Shown: piece after piece, positions 16,014 to 55,833 of the stretch | Numbering within the stretch: the stretch's first letter is position 1 | Layout: each line of letters starts with the position of its first letter | From: Aggregatilineales bacterium | GTDB lineage: Bacteria; Chloroflexota; Anaerolineae; Aggregatilineales; Phototrophicaceae | Length of the DNA: 64,000 bases | Reading direction: 5' to 3' | NCBI GenBank assembly: GCA_038328375.1 | Contig: JBBQLX010000011.1 | Coordinates: forward strand, 1,283 to 65,282 | Program-made: the position numbers and the translations under genes | The notes under the pieces: model-generated | Told to the model about the DNA's origin: nothing | Databases searched by the model: none | What the model saw: only the letters and a program-made list of their open reading frames with translations

Positions 16014-16040
16014 CTCCCTCCATCGCTTGCGGGGGAGGGT
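16014..16040 (+). repeat. REP-like palindromic repeat, copy 1 (CCCTCC...TCGCTTGCGGGGGAGG)
   Basis: Identical 16-mer TCGCTTGCGGGGGAGG also at about 27345 and 55793. Confidence 0.7.
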
Positions 16041-17269: not shown

Positions 17270-18406
17270 ATGCACATTGCTTTCAACGGCTGGTTCTGGG
17301 ATCAGCCCAACACAGGCAGCGGTCAATATATTCGCTACCTGCTTCAAAATCTGCGTCGTGTCGCGCCTGACCTGCAACTGACAATGGTTATGCCGCCACA
17401 CAATTCCTCACCAATGGATTTGCCCCCTAATGTCAGCGTCATACCCACACGCGGCGGCAGTGGTAATCTCGGCAAAGTATTGTTCGAGCAGCGTTCGTAT
17501 CCGCAGGCTGTCAAGCAGTCCGGCGCGGATATTGCCCATGTGCCGTATTGGGGGCCGCCGCTGTCATCACCCGCCCGTCTCGTGACCAGCATTTTAGATG
17601 TGATTCCGCTGGCTTTGCCCGAATATTCCAATGGATTTCGCGCCCGTTTGTATACCTCATTGGTTCGTGCTGCTTCGCGTGGTGCTGCCCATACCATCAC
17701 TATTAGCAACGCCGCCAAAGCCGACATTATCAAATATCTGGCGTTACCCGAAGACACCATAACCACCACCTATCTCGCGGCTGATGAAGCCTACCATCCG
17801 CGCATGGGTGCGGAGCGAGATGCCGCCGTTCGTGCCAAGTATGATTTGCCTGATCAATTTGTCTTATATATGGGCGGCTTCGACATTCGCAAGCAGGTCA
17901 ATGAACTCCTGCTGGCTTACACCTATGTCGGGCAGGCCGAGGGTGATAATATCCCGCTGGTCATCGCCGGACGTGAACCGCAGTGGGGCAGTCCGATGTT
18001 CCCCGACCTTCGCAAATATGCTGAAGAACTTAAAATCACCGATTACGTCCGCTGGATTGGTTATGTTGATGAAGCCGATAAACCCTCGCTCTATCGCCTT
18101 GCCGATGTCTTTGTCTTTCCCAGCGTCTATGAAGGTTTTGGCCTACCCGTTCTCGAAGCGATGGCTTCGGGTACTCCGGTTGTTGCTAACGAGGTTTCAT
18201 CCATTCCCGAAGTGACTGGCGAAGCGGCCTTTTTGGTGGGTGAAGGCAATGCCCGCGCCATGGGTGGTGCGATTATCGCTTTGTTGCTGCAACAGTCTTT
18301 TCGCGAGTCACAAATTAATCAAGGACTTGCCCGCGCAACTAACTTTAGCTGGCGCAAAACCGCCAAAGAAACCATCGCTGTCTACGAAAAGGTCATGGCG
18401 ATGTGA
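17270..18406 (+). CDS. Glycosyltransferase family 4
   Basis: FVFPSVYEGFGLPVLEAMASG. Confidence 0.92.
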   Translation: MHIAFNGWFWDQPNTGSGQYIRYLLQNLRRVAPDLQLTMVMPPHNSSPMDLPPNVSVIPTRGGSGNLGKVLFEQRSYPQAVKQSGADIAHVPYWGPPLSSPARLVTSILDVIPLALPEYSNGFRARLYTSLVRAASRGAAHTITISNAAKADIIKYLALPEDTITTTYLAADEAYHPRMGAERDAAVRAKYDLPDQFVLYMGGFDIRKQVNELLLAYTYVGQAEGDNIPLVIAGREPQWGSPMFPDLRKYAEELKITDYVRWIGYVDEADKPSLYRLADVFVFPSVYEGFGLPVLEAMASGTPVVANEVSSIPEVTGEAAFLVGEGNARAMGGAIIALLLQQSFRESQINQGLARATNFSWRKTAKETIAVYEKVMAM

Positions 18407-18420
18407 CCTTTTTTGCCTTC

Positions 18421-18595
18421 AAACCATTTCCTAACCATATATCAACAATTTCTCCTTCGCTGCTCCCTCAAAATGGTTGGTAACTTCGTCTCGAAAGAGT
18501 TACCAAAATGTAACCCATTCGACCTTGTTTTCGTTTATGATAGTTCTATCGGTATCTCTGCTCTGTGTCTCTGAGCCATTGTGTCTTTGTGTTAA
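18421..18595 (+). repeat. Element X, copy A (promoter-like non-coding repeat)
   Basis: Homologous to the reverse complement of 31165-31337 (shared AAACCA, TCCCTCA, AAAGAGTTAC, CCAAAATGTAACCC, TATGnT blocks). Confidence 0.7.
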
Positions 18596-18610
18596 AAGGC
18601 TTCGTATGAA

Positions 18611-19561
18611 ATGAATTTGAACTTACCCATCATCGAGCAAGTCTCGAATTGTAAAAGTATCCTGATCGCGGGCATGGGCGGCGGTTTTGATATTTTTTGT
18701 GGCCTCCCCATTTACTTTGAACTGAAAAGTCGCGGGTTGAATGTTCATCTCGCCAATTACAGCTTTTCTTATTTCGATTCTTTTGAAGGTGTTCAACTCA
18801 CCGAAAGCTTGTATGGTGTGAAGGCTGGTGGCGATCTGATGTCACCTTATTTCCCCGAGCGCTATCTTGCCGAGTGGTTTCGCGACAAACGCGCTGAAGA
18901 GGTCACCATTTGGAGCTTCGAAAAACTCGGCGTTAGCCCGCTGCTGGAAAATTATCGCGTGTTGGTCAAGCATCTAGAAATCGACTGCATTATCCTCATT
19001 GATGGAGGTGTTGATAGTCTGATGCACGGTGATGAATCTGCTGTCGGCACAATCGTCGAAGATACGATTTCATTAGTTGCTGTGGGGGAATTAGAGGATG
19101 TTCCGGTTAAGTTAACCGTTTGTATCGGCATGGGTGCGGAGCAAGATATATCTTACCCGCAGGTCTTCGAGAATATCGCCCAACTTGCCGAAGCAGGTGC
19201 TTTTCTTGGCGCATGTTCGCTCACCAAAAACTTTCCCTCTTATCAAGCCTATGAAGAAGCGGTTTTGTATGTCCAAGCGAAAGAGTATCAAGATCCGAGT
19301 GTCATCAATTCGTCGATTATTTCGGCGGTGCAGGGCAAACACGGCAATTATCACATGACCACCAAGACCAAAAATAGCCATTTGTCGATTTCTCCATTGA
19401 TGTCAATTTATTGGTTCTTTGAGTTGTCTGCCATTGCCGAGCGCAATATGTTCTATTCGCATATTGGCACAAGCCAAACCTTCCACGATGCCTTGCGAAG
19501 TGTGATGCAAGTCAGCCGCTTTCTGGACAAACGCCAACCCTCCCGCAACACCTTGGGTTAA
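18611..19561 (+). CDS. DUF1152-like protein, paralog 1
   Basis: AGMGGGFDIF, IDGGVDSL, ISPLMSIYWFF. Confidence 0.78.
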   Translation: MNLNLPIIEQVSNCKSILIAGMGGGFDIFCGLPIYFELKSRGLNVHLANYSFSYFDSFEGVQLTESLYGVKAGGDLMSPYFPERYLAEWFRDKRAEEVTIWSFEKLGVSPLLENYRVLVKHLEIDCIILIDGGVDSLMHGDESAVGTIVEDTISLVAVGELEDVPVKLTVCIGMGAEQDISYPQVFENIAQLAEAGAFLGACSLTKNFPSYQAYEEAVLYVQAKEYQDPSVINSSIISAVQGKHGNYHMTTKTKNSHLSISPLMSIYWFFELSAIAERNMFYSHIGTSQTFHDALRSVMQVSRFLDKRQPSRNTLG

Positions 19562-19603
19562 GAGACTGAATACCTCCCATTTGCAGCATAAAAGGAATCA
19601 CTT

Positions 19604-20557
19604 TTGGATTTAAATCTGCCTATCTTTGATCAAGTCTCCAACTGCAAAAGTATTCTTATCGCAGGTATGGGCGGCGGTTTTGATATTTTTTGTGGCTTAC
19701 CCATCTACTTTGAACTGAAAAGTCGCGGTTTGAATGTTCATCTGGCAAACTATAGCTTTTCGCCTTTTGAACATCTATCGAAAAGCACATTTTTAACGGA
19801 CTCATTGGCAGGTATCACAGCGGATACTGAAAGCCCTTATCACTACTCGCCTGAGCATTATCTTGCTAAATGGTTTCGTGAAAAACGGGGTGAAGAAATC
19901 ACCATTTGGACTTTCGAAAATACAGGTGTTCGTCCCTTGCTGGAAAATTATCAAACCTTGGTTGCTCATCTACAGATTGACGGCATTCTGTTGATTGATG
20001 GTGGTGTTGATAGCTTGTTGCGTGGCGATGAAACCGAAGTTGGCACAATTTTAGAGGATACGATCTCGTTGATAGCTGTCAACGAATTGAAGCAGATTCC
20101 CGTTCGCTTGATTGCCTGTGTCGGCATGGGCATCGAAATCGAGATTGCCTATACTCAAATCTTTGAAAGTATTGCCAAATTGACCGAATTGGATGCCTAT
20201 CTGGGAGCCTGTTCATTAACGAAACGCATGTCGGTCTATCAAGCCTACGAGGATGCCTTATTGTTTGTGCAAAGCCGACCGGCTCAAGACCCCAGCGTAA
20301 TCAACTCGTCAGTCATTTCTGCTGTACAGGGAAAATATGGTAACTTTCATCTCACCTCAAAAACCAGCGGCAGCCATCTTTCAATCTCGCCCTTGATGTC
20401 ACTTTATTGGTTCTTTGAATTACCCGCCGTTGCCCGCCGCAATATGTTATTTAGTGATCTGCGTTACACCGATACTCGAACGGATGCCTATCGTGGTTTT
20501 CTAAAGGCAAGACGTAATCTCACCCTGCGTAAACCCGGCAAAAGCGTTTTGGGATAA
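19604..20557 (+). CDS. DUF1152-like protein, paralog 2 (TTG start)
   Basis: Collinear paralog of the upstream gene with near-identical first 50 aa. Confidence 0.78.
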   Translation: MDLNLPIFDQVSNCKSILIAGMGGGFDIFCGLPIYFELKSRGLNVHLANYSFSPFEHLSKSTFLTDSLAGITADTESPYHYSPEHYLAKWFREKRGEEITIWTFENTGVRPLLENYQTLVAHLQIDGILLIDGGVDSLLRGDETEVGTILEDTISLIAVNELKQIPVRLIACVGMGIEIEIAYTQIFESIAKLTELDAYLGACSLTKRMSVYQAYEDALLFVQSRPAQDPSVINSSVISAVQGKYGNFHLTSKTSGSHLSISPLMSLYWFFELPAVARRNMLFSDLRYTDTRTDAYRGFLKARRNLTLRKPGKSVLG

Positions 20558-20631
20558 CTCACTTATGAAATCATTTGCAGCTATTCTCAGAGGTGATTTG
20601 TCTTGTAACTTGTTTCTTGCAACTTGTGACT

Positions 20632-20795
20632 ATTCCGCGAATGCCTCCCTTGTATCCGCCGAACCCTGTAGCAGCGGCGGACACGACCGAGCTACTCGCT
20701 GCACTCAGCGGATGTAGCCGAGCTGCCTGCCCGCATTTTGTGCTGATCCAGCGGCTTTTCCCGTGCTTCCCGCCCGCCATTTCAGCGGTAAAAAT
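20632..20795 (+). repeat. Element Y, copy A (GC-rich structured non-coding repeat)
   Basis: 20674-20793 matches the reverse complement of 30933-31052 at 93/120 nt without gaps (manual count). Confidence 0.8.
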
Positions 20796-20871
20796 GTCAT
20801 TTGCGCCATAACCGACACAAAATTCTTATGTTTAATCTCTCTATTCCTCTGTGTCTCTGTGGTTCAATCGC

Positions 20872-22050
20872 TTATCCCCGCGCTCGGCTTTTCTTCGCCA
20901 ATATCCCGCGATACAACCCGTCGAGGTCTTTCACAAGCCGTTCGATACCATAACGGTCAACCATCAAGGCTTGCGCTTCAACACCATCAGGTGGGGCAGC
21001 CAGCGTTTCCACAATCGCCTTTGCCAGTGATGCTGGTTCTTGATCGTTCACCAGCTTGCCCAGTTTCCCATGATCGAGTAAATCCGGTAAGCCGCCCACT
21101 GCTGTCGCTACCACCGGACATCCCGCAGCCAGCGCCTCAATCACCGTTACAGGCGTACCCTCGTTGACGCTGCTAATCACCAGCACATCAAGGCCGCTGT
21201 AAATATAGGCCAAGTTTTTCTGCCAGCCTGTAAAAATGACCGCTTCCCGCAAGTCCAATTGATCAACCAGCGCTTCGATCTCGGCACGCATTTCACCATC
21301 ACCCACAATCACAAAGCGAGCGTTTGGGAGTTGTTTTCTGATTTCAGCCGCAGCTTTCAAAAATAAGGGGTGATTTTTAATTGGTGTGATGCGCCCCACA
21401 ATCCCGATTAACGGCGCGTCGGCTGATATTTGATGTTCTTTGCGGAACACGCCGGACTTGCGCCCGACTTTGGTAAACTCACCCAAATCCAATCCTAATG
21501 GCAGCACCGTAATCCGTCCCTTGCGCGTGATGTGATATTCTTCAGCCAGCTCACGCCGCAGCCCATCGGAAAGGGTAATAATCGTATCTGACATTCGTGC
21601 GGTTAGACGTTCCAATATGATAAAGAATTGTGTCTTGTTCGGGCTAAAATACCCCCGGAACACATGCCCGTGAAAGGTATGCACAATCACTGGTACACCC
21701 GCCAACCACGCCGCTAACCGTCCCACGAAACCAGCCTTAGCCGCATGAGTATGCACCACATCAGGTTTCATCTGCTTGATAAGTTGGTAGACCTTCCACA
21801 GCGTCCGAATATCACGTATCGGGTTTAGCGAACGCCCCAACTCGGGGATGATTATCGGCTCAATCCCGCGCTCTTTCGCGTAGTAAGTCATATCACCTTC
21901 GCCCGCTTCAATCGTGCCGCACACCAAGAAACTCTCGTAATCTGGTGCGCCCATCCGTTCAGTCAGATGGGTTACGGCTACCGCTGGCCCACCCACGTTC
22001 AGGCGGGCAATCAGGTTCATAATGCGAATAGGGCGTTGTGTTTGGCTCAT
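20872..22050 (-). CDS. Glycosyltransferase family 4
   Basis: PDVVHTHAAKAG, SSVNEGTPVTVIEALAAG. Confidence 0.92.
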   Translation of the reverse strand: MSQTQRPIRIMNLIARLNVGGPAVAVTHLTERMGAPDYESFLVCGTIEAGEGDMTYYAKERGIEPIIIPELGRSLNPIRDIRTLWKVYQLIKQMKPDVVHTHAAKAGFVGRLAAWLAGVPVIVHTFHGHVFRGYFSPNKTQFFIILERLTARMSDTIITLSDGLRRELAEEYHITRKGRITVLPLGLDLGEFTKVGRKSGVFRKEHQISADAPLIGIVGRITPIKNHPLFLKAAAEIRKQLPNARFVIVGDGEMRAEIEALVDQLDLREAVIFTGWQKNLAYIYSGLDVLVISSVNEGTPVTVIEALAAGCPVVATAVGGLPDLLDHGKLGKLVNDQEPASLAKAIVETLAAPPDGVEAQALMVDRYGIERLVKDLDGLYRGILAKKSRARG

Positions 22051-27288: not shown

Positions 27289-27337
27289 GCAAACTCTCGA
27301 AAGTTTCGATAAAAACACCCCAGTATTTGAATTGATT

Positions 27338-27373
27338 CCCTCCCTCGCTTGCGGGGGAGGGCTAGGGTGGGGG
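27338..27373 (+). repeat. REP-like repeat, copy 2
   Basis: CCCTCCCTCGCTTGCGGGGGAGGGCTAGGGTGGGG between convergent genes. Confidence 0.7.
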
Positions 27374-30885: not shown

Positions 30886-30929
30886 GGGCAATTATCCAAA
30901 AGTGTTTATTGCACAAACTGCACATTATG

Positions 30930-31105
30930 TAATTTTCCCGCTGAAATGACAGGCGGGAAGCCCGCGAGAAGCCGCTGAATCGACACAAAATTCAGCGTGG
31001 TAGCTCGGCTGATGCCGCTGAGAGCCGCGAATAGCTCCCGTATGTCCGCCGCGTCGCAATTGTCGCAACTGCATAGCGGATATGAGGGAGTGATCCGCCG
31101 AATGT
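30930..31105 (-). repeat. Element Y, copy B
   Basis: Inverted homolog of 20632-20795. Confidence 0.8.
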
Positions 31106-31164
31106 GCAAAGACGAAAGACTCAACGCAAAGGGGCAAAGAGGCAATGACGCAAAGAAAATATAA

Positions 31165-31337
31165 AGGAACGTTAAACACGATGACTCCGAGGCACAATGA
31201 CACTAAGATAAGAACAGCATAGCAGAAAATAGGAGGCGACGGGTTACATTTTGGAAGACCATTTTGTAACTCTTTTGAGGAGTCGGCATTAACCAAAATG
31301 AGGGAAAATTGTGATGTCGTTGGTTGGAGACTGGTTT
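31165..31337 (-). repeat. Element X, copy B
   Basis: Inverted homolog of 18421-18595. Confidence 0.7.
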
Positions 31338-31412
31338 AGAGACCGTTAGTGAGGTTTGTGATTTCTAACAGAAGAGGCAGAGCATTTAGACTCCGCCTCA
31401 TCACAATTTGGT

Positions 31413-55750: not shown

Positions 55751-55833
55751 GTAGGGACGCACGGCTGTGCGTCCTTTTTTGTTTATCCTCCCTCGCTTGC
55801 GGGGGAGGTGTCGCGTTAGCGACAGAGGGGGTT
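55751..55833 (+). repeat. GTAG-type REP hairpin (terminator-like) plus REP-like repeat copy 3
   Basis: GTAGGGACGCACGGCTGTGCGTCCTTTTTT, then CCTCCCTCGCTTGCGGGGGAGG. Confidence 0.68.

Follow-up and report, generated by a model that had tools for sequence, protein, structure and literature searches.

A modular, promoter-headed intergenic repeat family in one Aggregatilineales genus, with two DUF1152 genes inside one of its units

Main finding

The window considered here, a stretch of 64,000 nucleotides on contig C11 of an Aggregatilineales genome (G000; 6.3 Mb, 247 contigs, 49% G+C), contains two DUF1152 genes, D1 and D2, which lie between the glycosyltransferase genes GT1 and GT2 and are bracketed by two non-coding blocks, X and Y (locus A); the same blocks occur a second time, inverted and with no gene between them (unit B). 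X and Y are modules of a new, modular, promoter-headed family of intergenic repeats. We lean towards reading it as a lineage-specific family whose default form is a gene-less cassette resembling a transcription unit, and whose cargo has been changed by ordinary processes, with no dedicated capture. A default unit would then begin with a promoter-type head (X or a second head, W) and continue through a CT-rich leader into a non-coding tail or body (Y or Z modules). The units sit at gene ends and are kept at orthologous sites across species; unit B would be the default form and locus A one of two or three sites with protein genes inside. At locus A, Y would mark the 3' end of the DUF1152 unit against the converging GT2. 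Cargo turnover among congeners would proceed by ordinary deletion, duplication and recombination, probably assisted by the repeats, and no dedicated site-specific capture system would lie behind it.

All compared genomes are metagenome-assembled genomes (MAGs), and the occurrence of the same modules and layouts in MAGs of independent studies speaks against assembly artefacts. Genes were called genome-wide with our own longest-open-reading-frame heuristic. In the literature, we found no paper on DUF1152 and none describing intergenic repeats of Anaerolineae.

Size and modular make-up of the family

The initial annotation of the window had noticed that X and Y bracket the DUF1152 genes and recur inverted; these coordinates hold, and both open reading frames (ORFs) matched Pfam DUF1152. 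The two Y copies (Y_A and Y_B) align as an inverted match of 120 nt (20674-20793 versus 30933-31052) with 78% identity and no gaps, or 20630-20800 versus 31110-30925 with the flanks included, while X_A (18421-18600) and X_B (31345-31160) align over about 200 nt with a single 12-nt indel and about 75% identical columns. Both matches are far above chance; both blocks belong to genome-wide families (nhmmer E-values down to about 1e-40). The blocks of unit B, described initially as about 60 nt apart and joined by short repeats, are indeed separated by about 55 nt bridged by TCTTTGC-type repeats. Simple-repeat tracts beside the blocks were likewise recovered, namely CT-rich tracts at 18556-18598 and 20846-20866 and a TCTTGTAACTTG-type motif (20600-20630), which adjoins further units elsewhere.

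Iterated nhmmer searches of G000 returned 149 X (about 165 nt each) and 151 Y (about 185 nt each), 139 of the latter at 60 bits or more. They fall into about 250 units, which, at several hundred nucleotides per unit, roughly amount to close to 2% of the genome. The modules of the family are X, W, the CT-rich L/P, the Z modules and Y. Thirty-five X-Y pairs have a gap below 300 nt and three more lie within 1 kb; X is upstream on the same strand in all 38, and none of the other three configurations was found below 5 kb in G000. The composite consensus runs from X through a leader ...GAGTC.TTGTGTTAAAA, TCTTTGCG repeats and a P motif to TTTGCATTTTCGGCGG, which opens Y. As this linker consensus is common to the composites, each behaves as a single unit. 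The bipartite element initially proposed is instead one combination within a modular family; about 110 X lack a Y, and about 100 Y lack an X. In 107 of 112 cases a solo X is continued by shared non-coding modules over about 400 nt. These include a GTAGGG hairpin whose stem varies by copy, CACCTTAACA and GACATTTCTCGGCTAAAC...TTTTTATGGCGACAAG, and end with a copy of the first arm of Y; the ORFs found after solo X are low-complexity artefacts. The GTAGGG-headed hairpin stands right after the -10-like box of solo X (for example C25:14000-14206 and C64:24610-24700 in G000). Its shape is REP-like, its stems vary yet stay paired (GCGCAC/GTGCGC, GCGGAC/GTCCGC, GTTTGCC/GGCAAAC), and nowhere else in the family can compensatory change be seen by eye.

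The W head reads GGTTTGA-N4-TCGAACC, then TTGACA, a 17-18-nt spacer containing GAAC-N4-GTTC, and TAAAAT, followed by TTTCTCTCTCAAAAT. It is a near-consensus sigma-70-type promoter sequence with 71 copies in G000, none of them within the window. A co-oriented Y lies 44-507 nt downstream of 62 of these 71 copies, and no opposed W was found within 600 nt upstream of any Y; because W nearly always precedes Y, heads and Y tails must be coupled, functionally or mechanistically. Altogether, 99 of the 139 Y have a head upstream (62 W and 37 X).

This regularity bears on the explanation that X and Y were inserted separately around a resident DUF1152 operon, their adjacency elsewhere reflecting a shared insertion preference. 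Random placement would give about 6.6 co-oriented X located 1-5 kb before a Y (149 x 139 x 4000/6.3e6 x 0.5), and the window locus is the only such case observed (n = 1), such a configuration being not improbable by itself; the many X and Y copies without a partner fit this explanation as well. At the GT1|GT2 site, moreover, Y follows D1 in congener G004 and D2 in G000 and G009, the X copies are mutual closest relatives and the Y copies are not, and the gene of G010 has neither block. Coincidence nevertheless seems unlikely to us, given the uniform order and strand of 38 of 38 close pairs, the common linker consensus of the composites, the near exclusivity of W for Y (62/71) and the recurrence of a head-genes-tail layout on contig C14, where it is kept in at least five genomes.

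Genomic placement of the units

Solo Y copies lie in convergent gaps in 48% of cases and in divergent gaps in 3%, the corresponding figures for solo X being 35% and 16%. Y points with its 3' end towards a gene's 3' end 74 times out of 96, the median distance to the stop codon being 73 nt. The P motif, CTCTGYGNCTCTGYGGTT(A/C)AA, has about 100 copies genome-wide; at 20 of them a converging gene has its stop codon 2-18 nt away, with a further example beside GT2 (20846-20869); the complement of P thus directly trails stop codons. Units are almost never spaced by less than 5 kb. Among neighbouring units, convergent pairs are in excess (38 '+-', at gaps of 6-16 kb, versus about 20 for each of the remaining kinds), and segments bounded by inverted repeats were considered as a cause. 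This was rejected, since unit ends favour gene 3' ends: the share of ends facing a gene 3' end is about 80% for the 3' ends of units and about 60% for their 5' ends, from which a ratio near 1.6 is expected, and this explains the excess.

Heads X and W as predicted promoters

X_A contains CCAACC-type boxes and a conserved core, CTCCCTCAAAATGG...GAGTTAC...AAAATGTAACCC (18463-18516), with TGTAAC (18509-18514), a 17-nt spacer and CGTT, and then a -10-like TATGAT (18536-18541). The X module carries TGTAAC-N17-CG(A/T)(A/T), which we take, as a lead only, to resemble promoters of the extracytoplasmic function type, such as the sigma-W/X sites of Bacillus subtilis. By eye, W and X have in common an upstream box, AGGTT(T/A)RAAACTC.(A/G)AACC, and a CTC(C/T)CTCAAAA word. 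X occupies the position of a promoter and 5' untranslated region (UTR) before DUF1152, and W fills its place in 62 other units. The distance from the end of the L module to the DUF1152 start codon (ATG) is 12-16 nt, and start codons lie 15-25 nt past the leader GTTAA (C14, G009) or its local variant GTCAAAAA (G006). X precedes the DUF1152 genes in the window, a VOC gene at C14, Y and an SDR gene in unit B, and Z modules elsewhere; W precedes Y. From position and motifs, X at locus A is most likely the putative promoter and 5' UTR/leader of the DUF1152 pair, and transcription would fire from both X and W heads. If the heads are active, the family would amount to an extensive natural collection of promoters and 3'-end modules, portable and from an uncultured lineage, and resident genes such as DUF1152, VOC and SDR would draw their promoters from it.

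W holds two palindromes, GAAC-N4-GTTC and the upstream GGTTTGA-N4-TCGAACC (example: C40:41400-41470 in G000). The former, between -35 and -10, presumably follows the LexA box pattern of the Gram-positive type. With 71 copies of W, either palindrome would make a large regulon or a titration sink.

Conservation and folding of the tail Y

Column conservation is markedly uneven in Y, where 32 of the 167 core columns are conserved at 97% or more and 33 at 55% or less (chi2/df 16), and likewise in X (chi2/df 26). In Y it follows motifs, namely CAGCGG/CCGC arrays. Neutral decay following an old burst would not produce such unevenness; each copy is under constraint at its motifs, and the alignments thus indicate that the X and Y motifs are under purifying selection. 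Y most likely acts via its repeated CAGCGG/GGCGG motifs and not via conserved helices, the motifs being putative recognition sites for a protein on DNA or RNA. If the tails bind a protein, the family would mark gene ends genome-wide, like REP/BIME in enterobacteria. A coding role of Y was rejected, as its three frames are each open in about half of the copies and none is prominent.

The reading of Y as a structured non-coding RNA (a small RNA, or a 3'-UTR/terminator) with a functional fold, which would make X..Y a strict expression platform, was also weighed and is improbable in our judgment. Promoter-like heads do precede Y in 99 of 139 cases, without exception in the same orientation, and Y_B is more stable than its shuffles (z = -3.5), but the opposite strand folds equally (z = -3.6). 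The complementary GC-rich arms of the consensus (GGCGG, CCGC, CAGCGG), seen in a 79-copy alignment, permit several mutually exclusive pairings, and the consensus fold from RNAalifold was weak. Candidate helices, five in all and among them a 12-bp long-range one from the minimum free energy fold, were rejected for want of covariation, column shuffles equalling the observed pairing in 104-456 of 500 trials. Where the columns of candidate stems vary, pairing is lost and not compensated; stem columns show equal rates of C-to-T and G-to-A change, hence an overall G-U bias is absent. The TTTGCA/TGCAAA motifs flanking Y are paired in 38-86% of copies, again without covariation. No Rfam match was found over the window at the gathering score, and a search over unit B with E-values up to 10 returned only chance-level matches (E 1.6-6); nor does a U-tract follow the last hairpin. 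The initial suggestion of a promoter coupled to a structured 3' end thus agrees with the position of X as that of a promoter and 5' UTR, and finds no support from covariation for the tail.

Distribution and age of the units

More than 100 candidate copies of both X and Y were found in each of six congeneric genomes (G000, G001, G004, G006, G009, and G010), and 127 candidates in G020, where Y was the module searched. X and Y are fewer in G014 (47 and 62 candidates), and the other congeners gave none or a few weak matches (Y: four in G003, one in G007, one in G015; X: three in G007, one in G011). No X or Y was found in 14 other genera sampled from the order. On these counts, the family is restricted to a subclade of one genus of Aggregatilineales (Chloroflexota). 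An X-Y unit stands at the orthologous DUF427|SDR site of unit B in G001, G004, G006, G009, G010, and G020, and is missing there in G003, G007, G011, and G014; its presence at orthologous sites in six congeners shows that units are old and vertically kept. At the GT1|GT2 site, orthologous X copies in G004, G006, G009, and G001 retain the orthologous signal. The Y copies of that site, which are not mutual closest relatives, point to gene conversion or to replacement by new insertions.

Gene content of the units in congeners

The GT1|GT2 site takes several forms. The order is X-D1-D2-Y in G000 and G009, X-D1-Y-D2 in G004 (with D2 outside the bracket) and X-D-Y-GT2 in the JBGAFZ MAG (L058). In G001 the site reads GT1-X-Y-GT2 with the typical composite linker, in G010 GT1-D2-GT2 with spacers of 26 and 50 nt and without X or Y, and G020 has an unrelated 2.1-kb ORF with WD40-like repeats (L123 2523-4725). 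G006 presents GT1, an extra ORF, X, the leader, the first 21 codons of DUF1152, P-Y and GT2. Its residual fragment, MNLNLPIFDHVANSKNILIAG, is identical to D1 at 15 of 21 positions (E 2e-9), and the retention of these 21 codons marks G006 as an imprecise deletion derivative. In this comparison of sequences, cargo loss between X and Y is shown once, in G006. G004 and G010 differ by an X-D1-Y block before D2 and have the D2-GT2 spacer in common; in G000, this spacer lies between D2 and Y. The initial annotation had proposed to compare orthologous loci for filled and empty forms, both of which were found; its idea that the element captures or loses cargo stands for the single loss in G006, and capture is not supported. 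Judging from the arrangements compared, the GT1|GT2 site is a hotspot of gene-content change even apart from X and Y. The series over seven congeners offers a ready test bed for repeats that accompany gene gain and loss. As a separate observation, the extra ORF fragment of G006 (L122 4783-5140) resembles, by eye, an endonuclease of the Uma2/DUF820 type.

All X..Y intervals of G000 up to 16 kb were listed, and three consist wholly of co-oriented genes: the window locus with its two DUF1152 genes, C14 with a VOC-like gene and C60 with a P-loop kinase-like gene. Gene-holding units thus number two or three of about 250. The unit at C14 provides the second X-gene-Y arrangement, which had been named at the outset as what would distinguish the pair from two unrelated repeats that happen to be adjacent. 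At this locus, X is followed by a 133-aa VOC/glyoxalase-like gene and P-Y in G000, G004, and G010, by an OTCase-like 307-aa gene, VOC and Y in G001, with the same spacing in G006, and by a frameshifted VOC, a 381-aa TPR gene and Y in G009. At C60, the unit is absent from G006, where an ABC gene and a nitroreductase gene are separated by 87 nt; this empty site is too diverged to be aligned with the G000 flanks. G009 has X-Y-nitroreductase, G004 X-Y-nitroreductase-kinase-like, and G000 X-Y-kinase-like, a partial second Y (model positions 79-185) and nitroreductase. The content in or beside the bracket therefore varies at all three gene-holding loci, and unit B is constant where present.

Such variation could suggest an active cassette platform, in which X with its leader and P with Y serve as recombination sites of an undescribed gene-shuffling system, or in which whole X-cargo-Y blocks are mobile. 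The genes always lie at one spot, 15-25 nt past the leader ...GTTAAA (GTCAAAAA in G006) and before the CT-rich/P-Y part, the X-D1-Y block that separates G004 from G010 is exact, and the corresponding site of G001 is occupied by a clean X-Y whose linker is typical, all of which speaks for such a platform. We nevertheless hold it to be quite improbable: genes occur in just two or three of about 250 units, the G006 deletion was imprecise, and D2 is outside the bracket in G004. No conserved junction word was found at the leader, cargo and Y junctions of G000, G004, G006, and G009, and no target duplication could be defined. The 8-bp repeat TATGAAAT, reported initially as flanking the cargo and as possibly due to chance, is present at 18605-18612 and 20564-20571 in G000 but is missing from the corresponding junctions of G009, G004, and G006, which have the same or a similar arrangement; being confined to G000, it is read as chance and was rejected as a target duplication. 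No recombinase ORF was found at the loci examined, a genome-wide IntI search not having been made, and no X-transposase-Y copy exists among the X..Y intervals of G000 up to 16 kb. The distributions of DUF1152 and of Y1_Tnp, given below, likewise argue against it. Of the gene-shuffling idea initially proposed, a weak form is retained, in which head and tail enclose a place of changing gene content, with one demonstrated loss; active capture is unsupported.

A bolder version, which we regard as a long shot, would see in the head (X/W) and tail (P-Y) a mobile 'transcription-unit shell' that packages, moves and exchanges short gene sets in Anaerolineae by non-integron means, with the roughly 250 gene-less copies as empty shells or as a 140-member RNA family with CAGCGG protein-binding motifs, and with the G004/G010 block and the cargo of C14 and C60 as traces of exchange.

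Several points weigh against the reading we favour, that of a default gene-less cassette with cargo altered by ordinary processes. The tree of five flanking proteins supports only the grouping of G000 with G004 (95%), so that gain and loss cannot be told apart for most changes, including the X-D1-Y block of G004/G010, and insertion boundaries or target duplications were not definable at the loci compared. The three loci were chosen for holding genes, and their variation at three of three has no ordinary-site control. Y copies at orthologous positions often resemble each other less than do paralogues within one genome, the two copies in G006 being 84% identical. A simple sigma-70 scan found no good -35/-10 in X, and Y does not have the shape of an intrinsic terminator, with no U-tract after its last hairpin.

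Search for mobilizing machinery and the DUF1152 protein

In analogy with REP/RAYT systems, DUF1152 was considered as a gene mobilizing the family and rejected, since its presence does not track the repeats: the family-rich G001, G006, G014, and G020 lack it, and it occurs in G007, G011, G016, and G019, where copies of the family are few or missing. It also extends far beyond the lineage, to cyanobacteria, Herpetosiphon and Deinococcus. A link to RAYT was rejected as well. Y1_Tnp genes occur in nearly all congeners, close counterparts of the RAYT of G000 being found in G007 and G008 (few or no family copies), and this RAYT-like Y1 transposase (137 aa, C22:18485-18898) is flanked by inverted AGCCGCTTTAGCAGGCTTGTCTGGTGA and not by X or Y. 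The region C22:18430-19085 of G000 has a classical REPtron layout, its repeat being unrelated to X and Y. The recombinase or RAYT that the initial annotation had proposed to look for was therefore not recovered in either candidate, neither of them being co-distributed with the family.

For DUF1152 itself, a confident AlphaFold model was obtained from a 24-sequence alignment (pLDDT 91.8, pTM 0.92). The best Foldseek matches were LmbE-type sugar deacetylases (teicoplanin deacetylase Orf2*, MshB and diacetylchitobiose deacetylase), with E about 3e-3 and TM of 0.33-0.38; no convincing solved relative was found, and the profile has no sequence match in the PDB. The motifs GGGFD and DGGxD...GDE are invariant. 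Together with the glycosyltransferase neighbors, they hint at a candidate carbohydrate-modifying enzyme.

Comparison with known repeat families

Among known systems, the BOX, RUP and SPRITE elements of Streptococcus pneumoniae, in particular boxA-boxB(n)-boxC (Croucher et al. 2011, PMC3049150), are among the closest. BOX and the X/Y family alike consist of a modular head, a variable middle and a tail, reach about 100 copies or more, are intergenic and confined to a narrow lineage, show past proliferation with slow present turnover, have no transposase of their own and can, presumably in the X/Y family too, be co-transcribed with their neighbors; fixed-order modules, intergenic location, lineage restriction and slow turnover are indeed all found in the X/Y family. 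By contrast, the X/Y modules are three to four times longer, have their own promoter-like head, with W dedicated to Y, hold genes between head and tail at a few loci and do not support an extensive conserved secondary structure. As host phylum and module lengths differ, the likeness is one of kind only.

Repetitive extragenic palindrome (REP) elements and their mosaics (BIME) also compare well with X/Y in being mosaics of short motifs, located at gene 3' ends and in convergent gaps, persistent at orthologous sites and conserved at the level of motifs, which suggests protein binding. X and Y are, however, polar multi-motif modules and not palindromes of 20-40 nt or doublets with a GTAG head; unlike in REPIN populations and REPIN-RAYT systems (PMC8049555), the RAYT of G000 is flanked by a different inverted repeat, and Y1_Tnp does not track the family.

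Promoter-bearing repeats (Correia, REP2 of Neisseria, ERIC and the 'putative mobile promoters' of Nijveen, Matus-Garcia and van Passel 2012, PMC3575422) similarly place a homologous promoter-like sequence before unrelated downstream sequences, whereas most X/W heads have no protein gene downstream and are coupled to a specific non-coding tail. Miniature inverted-repeat transposable elements would be expected to have terminal inverted repeats, and the two ends of the composite, CAAACC.TTTTCCAACC at the start and TGCAAAAT.TGCAAT at the close, are not complementary; an autonomous partner was not found either, no X..Y interval of G000 up to 16 kb holding a transposase. Correia elements have terminal inverted repeats and a TA duplication, in which X/Y units appear to differ from them. 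Integron cassettes and CALINs resemble the family in having a fixed platform with exchangeable content that differs between close relatives, but X/Y units are dispersed, carry their own promoter-like head, are gene-less in at least 97% of cases and have no integrase at their loci. The R''-L''...L'-R' (GTTRRRY) architecture of attC was not seen in the X and Y consensus, on inspection without a formal attC model. The X/Y units, which have the look of promoters directed into conserved non-coding tails, persist at their sites in several species under motif-level constraint and are undescribed for Chloroflexota.

Features of the window

The coordinates of the features are collected in Table 1. The post-Y stretch (to 20871) abuts the stop codon of the converging GT2 (20872), and Y_B ends 34 nt before the start codon (ATG, 30891) of the SDR gene, which has the same orientation. 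Among the six ORFs adjoining the two units, to which the Pfam scan was limited, neither an integrase nor a transposase was detected.

Table 1. Modules and genes of locus A and unit B in the window.
Feature	Position	Strand	Remarks
GT1	17270-18406	+	Family 4 glycosyltransferase; left anchor gene of the variable site
X_A, head module	18421-18555	+	Aligns with X_B; one of the 149-copy X family
CT-rich leader (L module), CTCTGCTCTGTGTCTCTGAGCCATTGTGTCTTTGTGTTAAAAGG	18556-18598	+	Same leader after X in the composite consensus
D1, DUF1152 gene	18611-19561	+	316 aa; first gene between head and tail; Pfam PF06626, E 9e-18
D2, DUF1152 gene	19604-20557	+	317 aa; Pfam DUF1152, E 3e-16; paralogue of D1, 65% identity
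TCTTGTAACTTG-type short repeat	20600-20630	+	Homology with the spacer between D2 and GT2 in G004 and G010
Y_A, tail module	20630-20800	+	GGCGG/CCGC-armed 5' part, three CAGCGG...CCGC units, final CATTTCAGCGG
Y tail and P motif (CTCTGTGTCTCTGTGGTTCAATCG, 20846-20869)	20801-20871	+	Homologous post-Y stretch in G006
GT2	20872-22050	-	Family 4 glycosyltransferase; right anchor gene of the variable site
Y_B, tail module of unit B	30925-31110	-	Aligns with Y_A
CT-rich linker of unit B	31111-31159	-	TCTTTGC repeats; compare the composite consensus
X_B, head module of gene-less unit B	31160-31345	-	Aligns with X_A

The orthologues of D1 in G004 and G009 share 75-78% identity with it. The 5' ends of D1 and D2 are 83% identical over 166 nt (18612-18777 versus 19605-19770), compared with 65% for the whole proteins, which, in terms of sequence, looks like gene conversion. 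A CATTTGCAGC word stands after the stop codons of both genes. Finally, a 25-nt palindrome, TCCCTCC.TCGCTTGCGGGGGAGGG, occurs three times in the window (16015-16039, 27337-27361, and 55785-55809) and may represent a family of terminator-like hairpins separate from X and Y.

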